Source: a plasmid. Taken from it: DNA of 64,000 nt. The stretch's first letter is position 1; every line of letters starts with the position of its first letter. Shown here in pieces: positions 27,916 to 49,575 of the stretch. The position numbers and the translations under genes were made by a program. The notes under the pieces were generated by a model, which saw only the letters and a program-made list of their open reading frames with translations, was not told the origin of the DNA and did no database searches. The stretch lies in sequence record NZ_CP041047.1; one strand, given 5' to 3'.

Positions 27916-29529
27916 TTACTTGGTCAGTTCTAACCGGCGCTGATAACGCTCCCAGCGCATGACGAGATTCGCCGGGTCTATCGGACGGCAAAGCCCGGTA
28001 ATCACATGGCCATCGTATTGCTGCAAATCGGGATCTTCGGCCTGCGCGACAGGGTCAACGTGGACGGTCAACGTCTCCGGGCAAATGGCAAGGACGTTGT
28101 CGTCAAACAGCCGGTGCAGATCGATACGAAGCAGCAAGCCATTACTCCAGTGATCCAGACCACCAGCACTATGCTCTACCAGGTGTGCGGCCTCTGTCCT
28201 GCGGCGTAAGCTTGCTCCTGTAATCACGCAGCGGTCGTTACAGTTTCGACGGACGGTAGCAGCGAAATCAGCCTGATCCGGCCTGGTCACCACGCAGGTT
28301 GTAGAGCCTTCACGTTTAGGGTGCGCCAGGGGCGCAACAGACGGTTCCTGCATGGAGACGCGGGATTGTTCAACTTCGACGGAGATCAGGGCTGGCTGGG
28401 GTGCTGGCTGCGATTCTCGCACTACATCGTGCGTAATGCCGTTGGTTTCCGCTTCTTTAAGCTTTCCGACCTGGCTTGCTGCGGCCAGCGCACGGTCACG
28501 CGCTTCCTGCTTTTCTTCCTTCGTCCATTTACGTTTGGCAGGTTCGTGTGTGGGAGCCGGGAGATTATCTGGTTCATTGACCGGCACAGGGTCAACCATC
28601 TTTTTGCCTTGCATTGACTCAGCCATAAACCGGCGAGCCAGCACATCAGCGCGTAGTCCCGTATCGCGATGCTCATAAAGATAGGTGCGAAATTCCGTCA
28701 CACGTCCGCCCACCAGCTTAATGGCCTCACTCATTCCGGCCTTGTTGATGGAAGCGCTACTGGTTTTCAGGTTGGGCAAACCGTACTGACGTGGGTTTTC
28801 TTTCTGGGTGCTTTCAGCGCCGGTCAGACGGCTCTCTCTGATTTTTCCATTATGCCGGGTCGGTGAATCGCCATTCGGATGTTCAGGAGATCGCCAGGTG
28901 TCTGCGGGAGGCGTATACGTTGTACCGTTCTTCTGGGCCATGTAGGCGAGCACTTCCCGCATATCAACACGGGTCTTTTTGCGCTCGGCAATACCTTCAT
29001 CAATCTGACGTTCAAGATCCGCTCGCTTCTCTTTGTGCAGGCGGCGCGATTCCAGTACGGTTTCGTTATCATTCAGGCGTTCTACTATCTCACCGGTATT
29101 TAAATTCTGGTTTGCCAGTTCGCGCACCATGCTCAGCACTAAATCGCCCATTGGATGCCGGGTTGTGATACCCAGGCGCTCAAACGCCCGGTTGGTGATC
29201 TCGTTTCTGCGGGTTTGATTGGCCAGTTCCGTGATCTTCTTCAGGCGCTCGATTTCGGCAAGCTGTGCCCGCTTCATCAATTCGCTGCCGGTTAGCATGG
29301 CAACAATCTGAACCTGACTCTCACCCTTCAGTAAGTGCTCGGTGATGAATGTAGAAAGAGCTGCCCGCCCACCGTGATTTTTAGGGATACCCAGCGTGGC
29401 CAGAATGTCTCTCTTTAGAATATTACGCAGGTTAGCGGCCTTTTTTTCCGCTTCATGTTTGGCCTGCATGTCCCGGCTATGCTGCTTACGTTCGGCCCGG
29501 GTTTTCTTCACCTTCACTTTCGTCGTCAC
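27916..29529 (-). CDS. HNH_2-type endonuclease-domain protein with a long basic/coiled N-terminal region
   Basis: The C-terminal CVITGASLRRRTEAAHLVEHSAGGLDHWSNGLLLRIDLHRLFDD has the CxxTG…AAH…NGL…H..FD pattern. The N-terminal ~400 aa has no motif I recognise. Confidence 0.55.
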   Translation of the reverse strand: MTTKVKVKKTRAERKQHSRDMQAKHEAEKKAANLRNILKRDILATLGIPKNHGGRAALSTFITEHLLKGESQVQIVAMLTGSELMKRAQLAEIERLKKITELANQTRRNEITNRAFERLGITTRHPMGDLVLSMVRELANQNLNTGEIVERLNDNETVLESRRLHKEKRADLERQIDEGIAERKKTRVDMREVLAYMAQKNGTTYTPPADTWRSPEHPNGDSPTRHNGKIRESRLTGAESTQKENPRQYGLPNLKTSSASINKAGMSEAIKLVGGRVTEFRTYLYEHRDTGLRADVLARRFMAESMQGKKMVDPVPVNEPDNLPAPTHEPAKRKWTKEEKQEARDRALAAASQVGKLKEAETNGITHDVVRESQPAPQPALISVEVEQSRVSMQEPSVAPLAHPKREGSTTCVVTRPDQADFAATVRRNCNDRCVITGASLRRRTEAAHLVEHSAGGLDHWSNGLLLRIDLHRLFDDNVLAICPETLTVHVDPVAQAEDPDLQQYDGHVITGLCRPIDPANLVMRWERYQRRLELTK

Positions 29530-33130: not shown

Positions 33131-35100
<1,970 letters not shown>

Positions 35101-36564: not shown

Positions 36565-36670
36565 TGGTCATTCCAGCCGACAAAAGATTGTCGGGTTGTT
36601 TTCTACAGGCCTTCCCTCTCAATCCCACCGGGTATATTTTCCCCTTCCCTCTCGTTCCCACCGGCGATAA
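36565..36670. repeat. iteron-like repeats (CCTTCCCTCTC..TCCCACCGG) downstream of repA1
   Basis: Two clear copies of a ~22-bp CCCACCGG-containing motif. Confidence 0.5.
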
Positions 36671-36947: not shown

Positions 36948-37814
36948 TCAGGAACCTGTTAGTTTGGGATTCCGATCCGTGATCTGAATGGTGGGTACGC
37001 TGGTGTCCACCAGGTAGTAAAATTTCAGGTAACCGATGCTGGCAAGCACATCGAGAGCAGTTCGCATTTTCCGGTTCTGTTCGGCAATGCGCCCATTGAG
37101 CAGTAAACGCTGTCGAAGTCTGTCAAAGGTGATCGGGGCTGGATGTTGAGGTAGCGCTTCAAAAAATGTATAGAGCGCCTGAGCCGTTTCATTCCTGGTA
37201 AGTAGCTCCAGGGGTTTCTTCCGCAACAGAGTAAGATGATCTGAACGGTACAAATCCCAGAGTCGTTCGTCGGCTTCCAGGATGATGTAATCACTTTCAC
37301 CATCAAATTCCGCCTCTTTCAGCAACCCGGCTACTTTGAACTTGGTGATCCCCGGGTTCTTCTCAAACCGAATGCTTTTTGAGCGAATCTTCGTCAACGA
37401 ATCGGCTATCTCATTGCGCAGTTTCGTGCTGTAGCGTTTTGATGGGTAGCCGCAGAGTTTGGCAAATTCACTAAAGGGCATTTTAATCCGGTTACCTTTC
37501 AGCGCATCAGGCGATACGCTGAAGGAATGGACGATTGCTGTCCAGCACCGGAAGTCCTGGAAATAATTCAGCATCGGGCCGGTGATCTTTATGTCCGTGT
37601 ACCCTTCCTGTTTTGCAATTTCCAGACTGGATAGCGCTTCCGTCACGTTTAGCGTGACCGTTGCCTCTGTTCGGCAACTGGGAGTAAAAACGCCCAGGCG
37701 GAGCAGTGATACAGGTTGTACTGATGAATTTTTTGTCACCGTCAGCTTTCCAGTCGACGGCTGATTGAAGTCGGGAATAGCGTCCTTGAAAAGAAGAACT
37801 TCATTCGAGTTCAT
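36948..37814 (-). CDS. repA: RepFIB-family replication initiator RepA (replicon 1)
   Basis: 288 aa. …LLRLGVFTPS…SAQALYTFFEALPQHPAPITFDRLRQRL… closely parallels the RepFIB RepA conserved blocks. Confidence 0.75.
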   Translation of the reverse strand: MNSNEVLLFKDAIPDFNQPSTGKLTVTKNSSVQPVSLLRLGVFTPSCRTEATVTLNVTEALSSLEIAKQEGYTDIKITGPMLNYFQDFRCWTAIVHSFSVSPDALKGNRIKMPFSEFAKLCGYPSKRYSTKLRNEIADSLTKIRSKSIRFEKNPGITKFKVAGLLKEAEFDGESDYIILEADERLWDLYRSDHLTLLRKKPLELLTRNETAQALYTFFEALPQHPAPITFDRLRQRLLLNGRIAEQNRKMRTALDVLASIGYLKFYYLVDTSVPTIQITDRNPKLTGS

Positions 37815-38124
37815 CGTGTGGATCCCCCAGTTTTATTGTTATTTTCCGGGTATCTTGGAATGCCCAGTCCGGGCGAATGTATCACGGTGATTTTTATTGA
37901 TCATGAGAAATAGGGGTCATTTAGTCCCCATTTATCGGGTATTGGTTTTTATTTGTACTAAATCAATACGTTATTTCAGAGATGAATCGGATAAATGTCG
38001 TTGACATCAAATTTTTGATCTGCTGCCAGTGTGGACAAAAAATGAATACCGATCACCTATTTTTGAGATTTGTTACGTATGATTATGTTTTTATTTGATG
38101 TTTTCATTAGCACAGCAGATGTTG

Positions 38125-38265
38125 ATAATTAAGTTCCTTTCCCCTTCCAATCCCACCGTTATTCCCTTTGAACACCACCAGCTACCAGGCTAACCCCACC
38201 GACAGCCCTTCAGAGCTCACTTTTTTCCCTCTCAACCCCACCGGGGCAGGTCTTCAGAGCTTACC
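38125..38265. repeat. iteron-like repeats (…CCAATCCCACCG, AACCCCACCGAC, CAACCCCACCGGGG) upstream of repA1
   Basis: Three or more CCCACCG-core repeats sit beside an AT-rich stretch with a DnaA-box-like GTGTGGACAAAA. Confidence 0.5.
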
Positions 38266-38386
38266 AGCTGCGGGTTTGCGGGAGCGGGGATCTTTTTGGT
38301 TCTATTTGGTCTTAATCTGGATCGATCTGTTGATCTACCCGGTGGATATGTGGATTAGTTGAGTCACGTCCTTGTTACTCGGTTGC

Positions 38387-38764
38387 TTAAATTTGGCCAC
38401 TACGAACTGTCTCAATACCACTCTGAACAACATCCCAGTTGATACCGATATCACCATCGTGAGTTCGGTCTATCAACGCTAAGGTCGACTCAGCTTCGCT
38501 AGCTGAAACCTGCGGCATGTTTCGGTCTATTGCTAACTCCTGAACATCAGACTTGTACCAGACACGGACTAGCACCTTTTCGTCAGGGTTCATTTTTTGC
38601 AGCTTTGCGATAATTTCTTTTGCAGTTGCGTACATGTGAGTGCCTCTTATCGTTTTGTTTACACAATCAGTAAAGCACCGAGTCAGTAGCTGACGAAGGC
38701 AAAAAAGATACTTTTCCACAGGACAGTTCCAATAAAGAGATCCCAAAGGTGCAACGGAGTACAA
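38387..38764 (-). CDS. hypothetical small protein between the two replicons
   Basis: 125-aa ORF. The real start is probably MYATAKEI… at ~38635. Confidence 0.25.
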   Translation of the reverse strand: MYSVAPLGSLYWNCPVEKYLFCLRQLLTRCFTDCVNKTIRGTHMYATAKEIIAKLQKMNPDEKVLVRVWYKSDVQELAIDRNMPQVSASEAESTLALIDRTHDGDIGINWDVVQSGIETVRSGQI

Positions 38765-39350
38765 AAGAGATCCCTGTACGCTGCAAGCCGCATGGTTACT
38801 GGGCTCAAGGGCATTTTATGACAATGGTAATGACTTTTTTGACATTGGTAATGATTAAAATGACATTGGTAGTGACTATTTCGACGTTAGTAGTGAGTAT
38901 TTGTGACAATGGTAGTGAGTTTTATTGTGTGATCTGAAGGTATAACTCTTAAAGAGTTTTGAGTATATTTCTATTATAATTCATATAGATACCATCTATC
39001 ACCTGTATGATGAAACAAAATTATTAAAATCTTATCCACTGTTTTCTATACGCATTTTCCTTTCATGCCCGTACATATTTTCGACAATTTAGCTATTCGA
39101 TGTTGATTTAACTCGAAGAGAGAATTTATCCCCATTTTCCACAAGGTAGTTCCAATAATTAGTACCTTACGAGTTCCCATAGATCACAAGAGATCCCCGC
39201 AGCTCGGAAGCCAGACGGCACAAGGCCTGGAAGCCAATCGGTGACAACGGTAGTGATTATTTTGACATTGGTAGTGAGTTTTTTAACGGTAGTAGTGAGT
39301 TTTTTGACAACGGTAGTGATTGCGGCGACAATGGTAGTGATTTTTTAAAG
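38690..39350. repeat. tandemly duplicated origin module upstream of repA2: two copies of [leader with AGTTCCAATAA / AGAGATCCC motifs + five ~21-bp direct iterons GACAWYGGTARTGAKT]
   Basis: Direct iteron clusters are at 38818–38925 and 39241–39350. Leader motifs recur at ~38700 and ~39140. An AT-rich stretch follows each cluster. Confidence 0.65.
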
Positions 39351-39560
39351 GATCTTTTTCACCGGAATTGATCCTTTGTTGATAAACTACGTATGTATTT
39401 GTTTTTATGTGAATTTCAGAGTTTTATATTTAGTCGTGGCGTTTTTTTAGCCTGGACTTATGCACAATCTGAGATCGTCGCAGAGATCCCTTAAGTGACA
39501 CTGAGGGCTTTGGGCGATAGTATTCAATAATCTGTTGATTAATACAGTCGATAAACCACT

Positions 39561-40679
39561 ATGACCAATGAGAAAGATTCTGAGCAGCAAGGCCAGATGG
39601 TTACCAGGGCTTTCTCTGTAACAGAGAGAGAGACAGGTAAAGAAATTATTTTACGTCCTAATAGCAGCAGGACGGTTCAGTCTATCGCGCTCATGCGCCT
39701 TGGGTTGTTTGTGCCATCACCAAAAAGCGTTGGCCGTCAGAGTCGTGAATACAAAACTGTTGGCTTTGATGCCACGAAAGAACTACAGACACTTTCTTTG
39801 ATGGAGAGCGAGGGTTTCACCAATATCTCGATCGTGGGTCAGCGCCTCGATATGTCTGTTGACTTCAAAACGTGGATGGGAATCATCCGAACGCTAGCTA
39901 ACCATCCGATTGATAACGATAAGATCAGCCTCAAATTTACTGAGTTTCTGAAGCTCTGTAACCCTGAAAATTATCGTTCCTCTACCGCATCCCGTAAGCG
40001 TATCGACGCGTCGTTACGCAGGCTGGCATCCGTGATGTTGTCCTTCACCAGCACCCACTCGTCAAAGGTGTATACGACGCACCTGGTGCAGTCTGCCTTG
40101 CTTGACCCGGACTCTGATCAGGTAGAGCTACAGATAGACCCTAAGATATTCGAGTTGTATCAGTACGACCACAAGGTTTTGATGCAGCTGAAGGCTATCA
40201 AGGAACTGGCGAAAAAAGAGAGCGCACAGGCGCTTTACACGTTCATTGAGTCACTTCCACCAAATCCAATCCCGATCTCCTTAACGAGACTTAAGAACCG
40301 ATTAAATCTTAAGACCCGTGCCAACAGCCAGAACGCCACAGTACGTAAGGCATTGGAGGAGCTGGCATCCATTGGTTACCTTCAGTACACCGAAGTAAAA
40401 AAAGATGGGAAGGTTTATTTCCAGATCCACAAACGCGATCCTGATTTGAATCTGAACAATATCCAACCACCACCTGATGGTGATGGCGAGGGTGATGCTG
40501 ATGAGGAGAACAATGGCACGTCGGGTAAAAATAATGGTGAGCCACTGGAAGGTGAATTGTGCCCACCAGATGAGCCCATTGATGGGGATGAAACGTTAAC
40601 CATCCATGACTTAACAGCTGAAGAACTTCACTACATTCGCAGCCTTAGAAGCCAGAAAAAGAACAATCCCGCCAGCTAG
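39561..40679 (+). CDS. repA: RepFIB-family replication initiator RepA (replicon 2) with an extended acidic/Gly-rich C-terminus
   Basis: 372 aa. …IALMRLGLFVPSP…RLDMSVDFKTWMGIIRT…ESAQALYTFIESLPPNPIPISLTRLKNRLNLK… matches RepFIB RepA blocks. Confidence 0.75.
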   Translation: MTNEKDSEQQGQMVTRAFSVTERETGKEIILRPNSSRTVQSIALMRLGLFVPSPKSVGRQSREYKTVGFDATKELQTLSLMESEGFTNISIVGQRLDMSVDFKTWMGIIRTLANHPIDNDKISLKFTEFLKLCNPENYRSSTASRKRIDASLRRLASVMLSFTSTHSSKVYTTHLVQSALLDPDSDQVELQIDPKIFELYQYDHKVLMQLKAIKELAKKESAQALYTFIESLPPNPIPISLTRLKNRLNLKTRANSQNATVRKALEELASIGYLQYTEVKKDGKVYFQIHKRDPDLNLNNIQPPPDGDGEGDADEENNGTSGKNNGEPLEGELCPPDEPIDGDETLTIHDLTAEELHYIRSLRSQKKNNPAS

Positions 40680-40744: not shown

Positions 40745-42200
40745 TGTTTAGCTTAATGACAACGGTATTGAGTGACGCGGTCACTACTGTTGTCATTGCG
40801 GGGTGACCACTCATGACAATGGTAATGAGACTAGATAGCTCACTACTGTTGTCATCATCGACATCTCTCCAGACCAGCTTCTCAGGGAAGGTCTTACACC
40901 GCTCACTACCATTGTCGGAATCGCCGGTACAGACAAATCGCTGATACCCATGACACCATGACATCGGCAATGAGTCTTGGCAGCTCACTGCTGTTGTCAT
41001 CATCGACAACTCTCCAGAGCAGCTTCTCGGAGAAGACCTCATACCGCTCACTACCATTGTCGGCATCGTCAGTACGGATTTATCGCTGATTCCCATGACA
41101 CAATGACAACGGTAATGAGTGATTTGACTCACTACCGCTGTCATTTGCTCCCGGCGCATTTGAATGACCACTGTATTGACTAAGAATACTCACTACCGTT
41201 GTCATTCATGATTCAGACCAAGTTCTTACTGCTCCACCAGCACAATGACAACGGAAATGAGTTCTGTTGGTCATTACCGTTGTCATATGCATTCCAGGTT
41301 AATCAGGCCTTTCAGGTAGCTATGGTAAGGATTCACTCGCCGTACTGTCTGCTCGTACTTGAGGGGCGGGATGAATGACCGTGGTAGTGACCGCGTCACT
41401 CCCTGTCGTTGTCGTTGTATGAATACATGGCCTGTCGGTGACAATGGAAATGAGTCCAACCGCTGTCGTAGCTAACCTGATTGGTCAATGACAATGGATG
41501 TGATTTTTTCAAGTCTCTACCATTGTCATCGTTTCCAAGTACATTTCAGTGGGGTCGTTCCGGCGATGACGAATCAAGTGAGTGCGGGATCACAACCATT
41601 GTCGAGGCACAACTTGCCGGTTGTAGCCATACCGAACGCTGCGACAACGATAGTGATCTCGATCACTCATTACCGTTGTCACCAGGCGGATGGTGAAGCA
41701 CCAGAATCACTACTGTTGTCATCTAACATTCTGCTACCCATGCAACCAATGACGATGGTAGTGAGCAACGCCGTCTACTTGCTGTATATAGGGATAGTAT
41801 GATGAGCCATAACAATGGTAATGACTCACTACCATTGTCATAGTTCCTGTACTTGATTGCCGGTAACCAGACAAGGGTTAACCATTAAGTCACTACCGTT
41901 GTCATTACAGAAAGGTACTTTCCTTAATTGTCATTACCGTTGTCGACCATGCACCCTCTTACCAGTAGTAACGGTTCGTTAATTATGTGAAGGTGATCAT
42001 TACCATTGTCACTGGTTACACTCCCGGCAGATTCAAAAATCGAGTGACAATGGATGTGAGTTCGATGCGCAGGACGGCATCTCAGTGCCGATGGCAATAG
42101 TTATGAGCTGACCAGACTGGTGACAACGATAATGAGCCAAGCATTGAAGCCCGTTTGCTACGACAACGGTAATGATTAGGCCTCACTACCGTTGTCAGAC
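40745..42200. repeat. ~1.45-kb array of >30 iteron copies, mostly arranged as inverted pairs (TGACAAYGGTARTGAG–N6-10–CTCACTACYGTTGTCA)
   Basis: Counted by eye, e.g. 40757–40800, 40812–40858, 40965–41010, 41105–41145, 41245–41286, 41643–41683, 41810–41840 and 42160–42197. The motif is the same as in the direct iterons upstream of repA2. Confidence 0.7.
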
Positions 42201-42207
42201 ACGATGC

Positions 42208-42927
42208 TTACTTCGGCCAGGTAAGTTCATCCCACCGGGATTTTAACCAGGCAGGGTTTACAGGTTTTCTTGTCGGTAATATTGGCCGAGCTTCATACGC
42301 GATGAGATCGTCATCCTTAGCCAGGATAGTGGGGTGGAAATGGATTGTCAGGGTGCTGGGATTAATCACACACAGGCCGTTGTCGTATAACCGATGTATG
42401 TCTGCCCGAAGCCACAGGCCATTACTCCAGTGGTCAGAGCCCGCTTTATGATGCTCAATCAGATGTGCTGCTTCTCCCCTGCATTTTGTCTTCACACCGG
42501 TGACGACACACCGCTCCATGCAGTTGAAGTATACCCTGTCGCTGAATTTCTTCTGATCAGGACGGGACATCGCACCGTACCGGCGATATCCAAAGCGTTT
42601 TGGTGAGACTTTCTCATCCAGGTCATCGTCAAATGAATCCTGACTCTCAGGCCGGAAGGTCTTCAGACGAACTTCCCAGCGAATGCCGTCACGTGCAAAT
42701 TGCTGCCCTACGCGTGGGTCATCATCAGGCCAGATAGCTATTCCCTTAGCTTTAACAGCCAGCCGGAACTGGCGGGCATCAGCAGGGGTTCCCGTGCGGG
42801 TTAGTGTCATAAATTCATGGACACTCCGGTACTCCACTGGTTCTCCTGATGAGCCAGCAGGCCTGGCGAGAACCTTGTCTTTAATATCGCGGGCGAGTTT
42901 ATCGGTTTGATTTTTATCTGAAGCCAT
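42208..42927 (-). CDS. HNH_2-type endonuclease-domain protein (paralogue of the 537-aa protein's C-terminus)
   Basis: CVVTGVKTKCRGEAAHLIEHHKAGSDHWSNGLWLRADIHRLYDNG aligns with the HNH block of the 27916–29529 protein. Confidence 0.55.
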   Translation of the reverse strand: MASDKNQTDKLARDIKDKVLARPAGSSGEPVEYRSVHEFMTLTRTGTPADARQFRLAVKAKGIAIWPDDDPRVGQQFARDGIRWEVRLKTFRPESQDSFDDDLDEKVSPKRFGYRRYGAMSRPDQKKFSDRVYFNCMERCVVTGVKTKCRGEAAHLIEHHKAGSDHWSNGLWLRADIHRLYDNGLCVINPSTLTIHFHPTILAKDDDLIAYEARPILPTRKPVNPAWLKSRWDELTWPK

Positions 42928-42989
42928 GTGAGCTATGCCATACCGGAAGAGGGAGGCATGAATAATGGGCTGTTTTCCGAGGATAAGCC

Positions 42990-43033
42990 ATAGATACTCA
43001 CTACTGTTGTCATTCTTGTCGATGACAACAGTA
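42990..43033. repeat. perfect iteron palindrome CTCACTACTGTTGTCATTCTTGTCGATGACAACAGTAGTGAG
   Basis: Seen directly. It lies between the HNH gene and the 141-aa gene. Confidence 0.7.
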
Positions 43034-43080
43034 GTGAGTCTGGTTGGTATGCATCATGTCGAAATCGGAGCACCGGTGAC

Positions 43081-48102: not shown

Positions 48103-49575
48103 TCAGTCGTCATCATGATACTCAGGGCCACCATAATTATCAAATCGAGACCATTGACCATTAAATGTGAGACGTACTGTCCCTATAGGCCCGTTGCGCT
48201 GTTTACCTATGATAATTTCGGCTATACCTTTCATATCGCTATTTTCGTGATAGACCTCATCACGGTAAATAAACATGATCAGGTCAGCATCCTGCTCAAT
48301 GGAGCCTGACTCTCGCAAATCTGAGTTTACCGGACGTTTATCGGCACGTTGTTCAAGCGAGCGGTTTAGTTGCGATAAAGCGATTACCGGTACATTCAGC
48401 TCTTTTGCCAGTGCTTTCAGAGATCGGGAGATTTCAGCAATTTCCAGAGTTCTGTTGTCAGATAACGACGGTACACGCATCAACTGAAGGTAGTCGATCA
48501 TAATGAGGCTAAGCCCACCGTGTTCGCGGGACAATCGACGCGCCCGGGAGCGAACGTCCATAGGTGTTAGGCCAGAGCTGTCATCAATGTAAATGTTCTT
48601 TTTTTCCAGCAGCAGTCCCATTGTGCCGGATAACCGGGCCCAGTCCTCGTCATCGAGCTGTCCGGTTCGGATGCTGGTCTGGTTGACGCGTGATAGCGAT
48701 GCCAGTGAGCGCATCATGAGCTGTTCCGTAGGCATTTCCAGGCTGAAAATCATGACGGGCTTATCGTTTGTCAGCGATACATTCTCGCAGATGTTCATTG
48801 CAAACGTAGTTTTCCCCATTGAGGGTCTGGCAGCGATAATAATCAAATCCGAGGGCTGTAGACCGGCTGTCTTCTTGTTCACGTCCACGTAGCCGGTATC
48901 AACTCCAGTGACCCCGTCATGGGGACGCTGGAACAAGGCTTCAATCTTGGTAACGGTTCTGTCCAGAATGCTGCTGATATTTTCCGGCCCACCGCTTTTA
49001 TTTCCCCTTTGCTCTGCAATCTGGAAAATCCGGCTTTCTGCAAGATCAAGCAATTCGTCACTTGTCCTACCTTCCGGGTTGTAACCGGCCTCGGTTATTT
49101 CGTTGGCAACTTTTATCATTTCCCTGATTACGGCACGTTCCCTGACGATCTGCGCGTAGGCAATTATATTTGCCGCACTGGGCGTATTTTTTGACAGTTC
49201 TGCCAGATAGGCGAAACCGCCGAGACTATCCAGCTTACCTTCTCCCTCGTTTTCGATGTGCTCAGCGAGGGTTATCAAATCAATCGGGAATTGATTCGCA
49301 ACGAGCGATCTCATTGCAGAGAAAATTGAGCGATGCGGTCGAGAACTAAAATCCTGCTCACTAACGATTTCTGCCACATCATCCCATCTCTGGTTTTCAA
49401 GCATTAACCCGCCCAGCACGGACTGTTCCGCTTCTATCGATTGCGGAGGGGTTTTTAAGCTGTATTCAGCTGTTTGCTTTGTCTCACCTGTTTCGGTAAA
49501 CGAGATGTCCGCCATAGTCATAAGTGGCCTCAGAGGTTCTGGAATAGCTTTTGTTTTTGTAATTGTCGTGCGCAT
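48103..49575 (-). CDS. DnaB-family replicative DNA helicase (plasmid/phage-encoded)
   Basis: AARPSMGKTTFAMN is Walker A. IMIDYLQLM is Walker B. The SQLNR and GKQRNGP motifs are present. The N-terminal domain reads …IEAEQSVLGGLML…. Confidence 0.85.
   Translation of the reverse strand: MRTTITKTKAIPEPLRPLMTMADISFTETGETKQTAEYSLKTPPQSIEAEQSVLGGLMLENQRWDDVAEIVSEQDFSSRPHRSIFSAMRSLVANQFPIDLITLAEHIENEGEGKLDSLGGFAYLAELSKNTPSAANIIAYAQIVRERAVIREMIKVANEITEAGYNPEGRTSDELLDLAESRIFQIAEQRGNKSGGPENISSILDRTVTKIEALFQRPHDGVTGVDTGYVDVNKKTAGLQPSDLIIIAARPSMGKTTFAMNICENVSLTNDKPVMIFSLEMPTEQLMMRSLASLSRVNQTSIRTGQLDDEDWARLSGTMGLLLEKKNIYIDDSSGLTPMDVRSRARRLSREHGGLSLIMIDYLQLMRVPSLSDNRTLEIAEISRSLKALAKELNVPVIALSQLNRSLEQRADKRPVNSDLRESGSIEQDADLIMFIYRDEVYHENSDMKGIAEIIIGKQRNGPIGTVRLTFNGQWSRFDNYGGPEYHDDD

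Follow-up and report, generated by a model that had tools for sequence, protein, structure and literature searches.

Organization of the repA2 replicon and its downstream array

We analysed 64,000 nucleotides of a plasmid (sequence record NZ_CP041047.1), hereafter called the window, with attention to a large array of short repeats that follows repA2, a gene encoding a replication initiator of the iteron type. The window belongs to a lineage of MOBH plasmids of 190-410 kb centred on Citrobacter freundii, to which MOB-suite gives no Inc replicon and which is not typed as IncHI2A. The features of the replicon and of its array, with positions in the window and the methods that identified them, are as follows (PWM, position-weight matrix; TRF, Tandem Repeats Finder):

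38817-38921, plus strand: origin iteron set 1, five direct repeats with 21-bp spacing (PWM scan; TRF period 21 x 5.3)
38922-39239: AT-rich spacer between the iteron sets, GC 0.33-0.39 (composition profile)
39240-39343, plus strand: origin iteron set 2, five direct repeats with 21-bp spacing, directly upstream of repA2 (PWM scan; TRF period 21 x 5.0)
39304-39332, plus strand: sigma-70-like promoter, TTGACA-17-GACAAT, 10/12 matches, inside iterons 4-5 of set 2 (consensus scan)
39561-40679, plus strand: repA2, coding for a 372-amino acid (aa) iteron-type initiator (tblastn, Pfam domains of the homologues, fold match)
40755-42199, both strands: iteron array, 34 copies (PWM scan, pair analysis, cross-lineage comparison)
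40812-41101: internal tandem duplication of 145 bp, two copies 83% identical (TRF period 145 x 2.1, score 443)
42996-43039: isolated divergent iteron pair, perfect 18-bp arms and a non-palindromic 8-bp spacer (inverted-repeat search; PWM pair 42995/43021)

When up to two mismatches were allowed, GACAAYGGTARTGA gave 44 matches in the window, as against a mean of 1.29 and a maximum of 5 in dinucleotide-preserving shuffles, and 31 of the 44 were located at 40758-42196. The PWM built from these matches, applied with a cut-off of at least 12 bits, placed 34 sites of the 16-bp motif TGACAAYGGTARTGAG in the array, 16 on the plus and 18 on the minus strand. This confirms the original prediction, which had described more than 30 copies of the motif over about 1.45 kb downstream of repA2 and had considered them to be the same as the direct iterons of the origin; indeed, the PWM also detected TGACAAYGGTARTGAG in the ten origin repeats. 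Each plasmid thus presents about 34 sites in the array versus 10 at the origin.

It had also been proposed that most copies formed inverted pairs, and this was the case for 22 of the 34 array sites, which make up 11 convergent pairs (a plus-strand site followed by a minus-strand one). The pairs are built of a 16-bp core, a spacer of about 8 bp and a second 16-bp core, that is, a unit of about 40 bp, and they displayed offsets of 23, 25, 25, 24, 24, 24, 23, 24, 24 and 21 bp, plus one of 15 bp (mode 24). Random placement and orientation of 34 sites yielded 1.6 convergent pairs on average and at most 7 in any of 20,000 trials, and all the neighbouring sites that were 20-26 bp apart showed the plus-then-minus orientation. 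The other 12 sites are single, some of them with decayed partners. The units are irregularly spaced, with distances from site to site of 15-106 bp, and each copy of the 145-bp duplication holds one pair plus one single site. The GC content of the array is ordinary (0.45-0.50), and there is neither an AT-rich stretch nor a cluster of DnaA boxes in it.

The array is shared, at 99% identity or more, by 107 complete and independent plasmid records, which come from eight genera (Citrobacter, Klebsiella, Enterobacter, Escherichia, Salmonella, Kosakonia, Kluyvera and Raoultella). Since so many complete records carry it in near-identical form, an assembly artefact, the risk to which the original prediction had drawn attention, is ruled out. 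RefSeq records annotate no gene inside the array, and a coding function was rejected for the two open reading frames (ORFs) inside it (145 aa on the minus and 104 aa on the plus strand), which lack a Pfam match and a RefSeq annotation. A search of the array against Rfam returned no family; hairpins matched a microRNA model at chance level only, with values well under its gathering score, and a phage origin was discarded after no match appeared in the phage collection.

The RepA2 initiator and its origin

RepA2 is 85.7% identical by tblastn to the RefSeq "IncHI-type plasmid replication initiator protein RepHI2" and 50-60% identical to RepA proteins of the RepFIB/pMT1 type that bear the PF01051 (Rep3_N) domain. 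RepA2 itself had no match above threshold in sequence and profile searches of Pfam, NCBIfam and PDB. Its AlphaFold model, obtained with 18 homologues, was weak (predicted local distance difference test, pLDDT, of 58), and the best PDB matches of this model were two iteron initiators, RctB (domains 2-3) and RepE. On the basis of its homologues and of this weak fold match, RepA2 can be assigned to the Rep_3 (WH1-WH2) family of iteron initiators. Both RepA2 and RepHI2 present an acidic, Pro/Gly-rich C-terminal extension of about 75 aa followed by a short helix, with pLDDT values below 50 (40440-40679, RepA2 residues ~294-372); the RepFIB-type relatives with 50-60% identity align over only about 75-80% of RepA2.

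Upstream of repA2, the 20-mers of iteron set 1 start at 38817, 38838, 38859, 38880 and 38902. The AT-rich spacer that follows contains a DnaA-box-like 9-mer at 39032, a tandem pair of them at 39126-39143 and a GATC-containing sequence at 39179-39200, and nine of the 18 DnaA-box-like matches of the whole window fall in 38030-39466. By analogy with the P1/RepFIB origins, this spacer is probably where DnaA acts and the origin unwinds. Similarly, the promoter-like site in set 2 is a candidate for an autoregulated repA2 promoter, autoregulation being suggested by what occurs in P1/RepFIB-type replicons. The traits of a P1/RepFIB/RepHI2A-class origin that we tested (phased direct iterons over a promoter, DnaA boxes and an AT-rich stretch) were present, and the two-set layout of the iterons is also kept in IncHI2 plasmids, where the counterpart of set 1 is at 5257-5361 of L002, the locus of plasmid pFORC82_1. 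We also observed that the origin appears duplicated, with two tandem modules (38712-38921 and 39126-39343) that each contain a DnaA-box-like 9-mer, a GATC-rich sequence and five 21-bp iterons, and that blocks of the repA2 leader (39388-39553) recur about 1.3 kb upstream (38074-38348).

A second initiator gene lies on the other side of this origin:

36948-37814, minus strand: repA1, second initiator gene, Rep3_N domain (Pfam)

It is flanked by a 22-27-bp repeat of its own, CCTTCCCTCTCAATCCCACCGG, which is unrelated to the array motif and is present in two copies on each side (36610-36669 and 38134-38249). Because repA1 has this separate repeat, comparison of the sequences assigns the TGACAAYGGTARTGAG motif to RepA2, and the plasmid thus has two iteron replicons side by side, each specific for its own sites.

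Related arrays in R478 and in other plasmids

The array had been regarded as unprecedented, and this view proved wrong, as the same array follows repHI2, with regular 81-bp units, in R478 and in about 1,100 IncHI2 plasmids. In R478 (NC_005211) we identified 37 sites downstream of repHI2, with a pair offset of 24 bp, arranged in twelve units whose successive spacings are 81, 81, 81, 81, 81, 81, 81, 81, 80, 81 and 81 bp and the first of which starts 542 bp past the stop codon. These units are the "twelve 80-81 bp iterons" described for this plasmid (PMC8490738), and their sequence indicates that the long iteron of R478 is a head-to-head (convergent) pair of short iterons. In that work the repeats were treated as functional iterons of RepHI2A, and cloning experiments suggested that they had functional activity (PMC8490738); the units also agree with the iterons of up to 76 bp mentioned in a review (PMC4980987). 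A comparative preprint on IncHI plasmids and a paper on an IncHI2 plasmid make no mention of the repeats.

The window resembles R478 in its initiator (85.7% identical), its layout of two sets of five 21-bp iterons followed by rep and a large downstream array, the 16-bp motif, the convergent pair with its 24-bp offset, and the number of sites (37 in R478 versus 34 here). On the other hand, R478 carries twelve regular units of 80-81 bp and the window array is irregular, with 12 unpaired sites. The IncHI2 plasmid pFORC82_1 also has two sets of five 21-bp iterons and repHI2, followed by an array of 1.75 kb with 35 copies of the motif, organized in 81-bp tandem units that hold one convergent pair each with an offset of 24 bp. 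Seven more IncHI2-type loci from other genera presented 37 sites each. Among the IncHI2 records the matches spanned 3721, 3801 or 3881 bp, in steps of about 80 bp, which suggests that the number of units varies from 11 to 13. Since 81 bp corresponds to 27 codons, the IncHI2 unit also creates a spurious repetitive ORF of 202 aa (L002 7453-8061), at times annotated as hypothetical proteins; we rejected it as a gene because it is not conserved.

A third lineage (represented by locus L011), whose RepA is 94% identical, showed the synteny of the window, 29 array sites and the same divergent palindrome, located some 70 bp before the start codon of an HNH endonuclease-family gene. The protein search disclosed this single intermediate lineage (94%), below which the next identities were about 60%, and a scan of genome contigs for diverged lineages of the RepHI2 clade found only IncHI2-type (86%) loci. 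Farther away, pFra/pMT1 (RepA 56% identical) carries about 13 downstream iterons in 570 bp, in both orientations, and a Morganella plasmid about 5-6. The range of 3-10 copy-control repeats that had been taken as the limit for iteron plasmids was thus too low, and by these counts the clade of the window and IncHI2 is at the upper extreme, versus the ~5-13 downstream iterons of related RepFIB-type replicons. No loss of the array was seen among about 109 plasmids of the window lineage and about 1,100 IncHI2 records.

From these comparisons we conclude that the array is the homologue of the RepHI2A downstream array known from R478, here irregular in form and carried by an untyped sister lineage. 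We speak of an irregular state and not of the same repeat family because TRF detected only the 145-bp duplication and the spacing is irregular. In sequence terms, this duplication is a trace of growth of the array by tandem amplification. Together with the 81-bp units of IncHI2, it indicates that such arrays grow by tandem amplification and then decay to an irregular form that keeps about 30 sites.

Conservation of the motif and of the pair geometry

The window and IncHI2 arrays could not be aligned by blastn, although the DNA of the adjoining rep genes shows 77% identity. Between the window and L011, identity was 76% in the motif cores and 42% in the spacers, with 65% at the third codon positions of repA2 (Fisher P about 1e-33), a contrast that is partly inflated because the aligner pairs any copy of the motif with any other. 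The comparison of the tandem units within IncHI2 plasmids is free of this problem, and it gave pairwise identities of 88% for the cores and 55% for the spacers. Hence, the convergent 24-bp geometry and the motif cores are kept in all three lineages (window, L011 and IncHI2/R478), and the spacers are saturated.

The two arms of a pair were no more alike than arms taken from different pairs (partner-shuffle P = 0.46, 0.13 and 0.92), so that each arm seems to be held to the consensus independently of its partner. This sequence pattern points to selection on protein-binding sites and not on hairpin complementarity, and selection for hairpins or cruciforms in the array was discarded, there being no excess of arm-to-arm identity.

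Insertion sequences within the arrays

For insertion sequence (IS) elements, the array seems to be a site that permits or attracts insertion. An IS3 was found inside the array of pF1917-1 and an IS4321-bounded insertion inside that of pKPC_CAV1947-412, and both plasmids are maintained. Two IncHI2 records contain IS2 and IS1203 in the matched region of repHI2 and the array, where they were placed to the level of the region only. In arrays of the window lineage the insertions are at 3773-4941 of L014 and at 5165-6445 of L015, and several IncHI2 records share a break near position 8320 of L002.

The isolated palindrome and the neighbouring genes

The original prediction included one more perfect palindrome, of 44 bp, at 42990-43033. 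The 18-bp arms are indeed perfect; however, the position was 6 bp too low (42996-43039), the 8-bp spacer is not palindromic, and it had been overlooked that the orientation of the arms is the opposite one. In this pair the TGACA ends face inward, that is, the pair is divergent, contrary to those of the array. The palindrome lies 69 bp upstream of the start codon of a gene that converges on the array:

42208-42927, minus strand: HNH_2 endonuclease-family gene (239 aa), converging on the array (Pfam PF13391)

When the intergenic region upstream of this gene was compared between the window and L011, the palindrome (L011 9282-9325) was the only conserved block, and both of its arms shared the same two substitutions (CAG in the window, TGG in L011). 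IncHI2 plasmids have an extra isolated pair too (L002 4998-5031), a near-perfect palindrome with a non-consensus C in both arms; unlike that of the window, which is divergent and downstream, it is convergent and upstream of the origin. Perfect or near-perfect symmetry was therefore found in the isolated pairs and not in the array pairs, a pattern that comes from three lineages only, and it suggests that the sequence of isolated pairs is under a different constraint, be it dimer binding at an operator, structure or conversion between arms. If transcribed, the palindrome would fold into a strong RNA hairpin (z = -6.4); no T-run follows it.

The operators bound by Rep dimers in F, pPS10 and R6K are the closest parallel, as they are also inverted repeats derived from the iteron sequence, and the palindrome at 42996-43039 has its TGACA ends proximal. 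In those systems, in contrast, half iterons overlie the rep promoter, and the palindrome is made of full iterons and lies 2.3 kb beyond repA2. The trait is absent from the locus as a whole, since the array pairs and the palindrome are full iterons 0.1-2.4 kb downstream of repA2 and the promoter-like site is within direct iterons. With this reservation, the sequence makes the palindrome a candidate operator for RepA2 (as a dimer) or a candidate boundary site; upstream of the HNH gene it would provide a further RepA2 site with the geometry expected of a dimer operator.

The HNH gene lies between the array and the palindrome. It is syntenic in L011 and absent from IncHI2, where the flanking genes are immunoglobulin-like, and we regard it as a neighbour whose membership of the system is only putative. 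The backbone close to the replication region also encodes a second protein with an HNH_2 domain (537 aa; 27916-29529, minus strand). A gene for a DnaB-type replicative helicase with N- and C-terminal domains (48103-49575, minus strand; E = 1e-106) is located some 6 kb away from the replicon, and an IS21-family element with an IstA-like transposase and an IstB ATPase (33131-35100, minus strand) lies about 2 kb from repA1.

Possible functions of the array

We are highly confident that the array is a RepA2-binding iteron array homologous to the repeats of R478, as its motif, its geometry and its position indicate. As to its role, the classical examples of downstream clusters that titrate and handcuff Rep are the incA locus of P1, the incC locus of F and the RepFIB repeats. 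Like these loci and the repeats of RepFIB (P307) and pMT1/pFra, the array is a second cluster of the origin's iterons placed just downstream of rep. It also shares with incA and incC the trait of presenting the origin's own iterons outside the minimal origin, without AT-rich or DnaA features. It differs from all of them in having three to seven times more sites and in its head-to-head pairs of full iterons separated by a spacer of about 8 bp. By this analogy, the array probably acts in negative copy control and incompatibility, as a locus of the incA/incC type. Of the functions put forward in the original prediction, a Rep sink or handcuffing locus is thus the best-supported reading, its function being a matter of inference.

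In iteron plasmids, Rep monomers bind the iterons, which serve both to start replication and to prevent over-initiation, through titration of Rep and through the pairing of iterons by the initiators, or handcuffing (PMC3401445). Applied to the window, two RepA2 monomers would bind each pair head to head, probably in a cooperative manner, and the ~34 array sites, compared with the 10 of the origin, would soak up free RepA2. Rep-Rep bridges would in addition allow the array to handcuff the origin iterons, either in cis or on the sister copy. Through this titration of RepA2 and handcuffing of the origin, initiation would be shut off once the plasmid had replicated, which would keep this plasmid of 200-370 kb at about one copy per chromosome. 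The array would also be an incompatibility determinant and, as the iteron consensus is common to both lineages, a cross-reaction with IncHI2 plasmids is predicted.

Several points weigh against this interpretation. The binding, copy-number and incompatibility roles ascribed to this array are putative, and the structural model of RepA2, with its pLDDT of 58, is weak. Convergent pairs of full iterons such as those found here depart from the geometry of the classical incA and incC loci. Furthermore, the "functional activity" reported for the R478 repeats could be a positive one, that is, an origin function, and the fact that no plasmid was seen to lack the array, which fits strong selection, would also fit an essential role in cis. 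Lastly, the inflation of the core-to-spacer contrast between the window and L011 removes some of the weight of that comparison.

A large conjugative plasmid of Acinetobacter, the megaplasmid pALWED1.1, resembles the window in bearing at least ten long (83-bp) iterons several hundred bp from rep, and its authors compared their repeats with those of R478 (PMC8490738); nevertheless, both the replicase and the repeat sequence are unrelated. The 39-mers of Vibrio cholerae chromosome 2 offer a different parallel, as they are initiator sites of about 40 bp located by the origin, apart from the initiating iterons, and are the main inhibitor through handcuffing (PMC3401445); RctB domains 2-3 were also the best fold match of the RepA2 model, a weak one. 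The 39-mers differ, however, in being few, unrelated in sequence to the iterons of their own origin and bound by an RctB monomer, and here each of more than ten units consists of two inverted iterons and has no sequence relationship with them. It is conceivable, although we consider it doubtful, that the 40-bp convergent pair is a dedicated class of inhibitory Rep site comparable to those 39-mers, which would trap two monomers head to head. More than ten such traps might then provide a chromosome-like once-per-cycle switch, or a choice of which replicon fires in the two-replicon plasmids of the IncHI type, rather than an incA-style sink, and the symmetric isolated pairs could be a third class of site tying neighbours such as the HNH gene to Rep levels.

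A positive role of the array in cis, as an auxiliary or second origin or as an enhancer that loads RepA2, is unlikely. It would agree with the retention of the array in essentially every plasmid of both lineages, and also with the R478 work, in which the repeats were called iterons and seemed active upon cloning (PMC8490738). Against it stand the ordinary GC content (0.45-0.50) of an array without an AT-rich stretch or DnaA cluster, when the region upstream of repA2 has both of these along with the phased 21-bp iterons, and the IS elements lodged inside the arrays of plasmids that are maintained. The corresponding downstream cluster is moreover negative in the P1/RepFIB relatives.

We find it quite unlikely that the array is a functionless by-product, left by the amplification and drift of a palindromic unit that happened to hold iterons. 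The 145-bp duplication, the tolerance to IS insertions and the variation of the regular 81-bp units among IncHI2 plasmids (35 versus 37 sites; 3721, 3801 and 3881 bp) are what such a process would leave. Drift alone, however, does not account for some 30 cores that still match the consensus when the spacers are saturated and the synonymous sites 35-50% different, for the preservation of the 24-bp pair geometry, or for the IncHI2 cores being far better conserved than their spacers.

The centromere-like site contemplated in the original prediction, in the sense of a pairing or positioning site for segregation bound by RepA2 or another protein, is very unlikely. Many closely placed protein-binding repeats in both orientations do resemble some parC/parS arrays, and in the IncHI1 plasmid R27 the FIA-like replicon depends for its stability on the downstream incC repeats (PMC4853401). 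Yet Pfam detected no genes of the ParA, ParB, ParM or ParR type, either in the eight ORFs scanned close to the array or in the ten of 180 aa or more scanned between 25.3 and 55.6 kb, in keeping with the absence of ParAB that had already been noticed; the parAB and parMR genes of IncHI2 are elsewhere, in the tra2 region (PMC5955447); and the motif is that of the Rep iterons, with no separate sequence.

Finally, it is extremely improbable that the pairs serve as nucleic-acid structures (a cruciform, an RNA hairpin or terminator, or a single-strand hairpin in conjugation) or divert a defence or anti-plasmid system as decoys, for although each pair is able to fold, the genes on either side of the array converge without recognisable terminators, and the isolated palindrome is strongly structured as RNA (z = -6.4) with arms that change in concert between lineages, the array arms show no compensatory or concerted change, no T-runs follow the stems, no Rfam family was matched, 12 sites are unpaired, and the decoy found no support, as we identified no defence genes next to the array (a result that does not include a search of the padloc library).

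Significance for IncHI2 and related megaplasmids

The array does not reveal a new kind of system, and represents instead a known kind of copy-control locus at its upper extreme. Among Enterobacterales, IncHI2 plasmids and related MOBH megaplasmids rank as major vehicles of carbapenemase, mcr and metal-resistance genes; to our knowledge, the control of their copy number has hardly been studied. An untyped sister lineage centred on Citrobacter, of which over 100 plasmids have been sequenced, has the same device and the same motif as IncHI2, and the ~34 Rep sites would represent a compact target for curing these plasmids or for displacing them by incompatibility.

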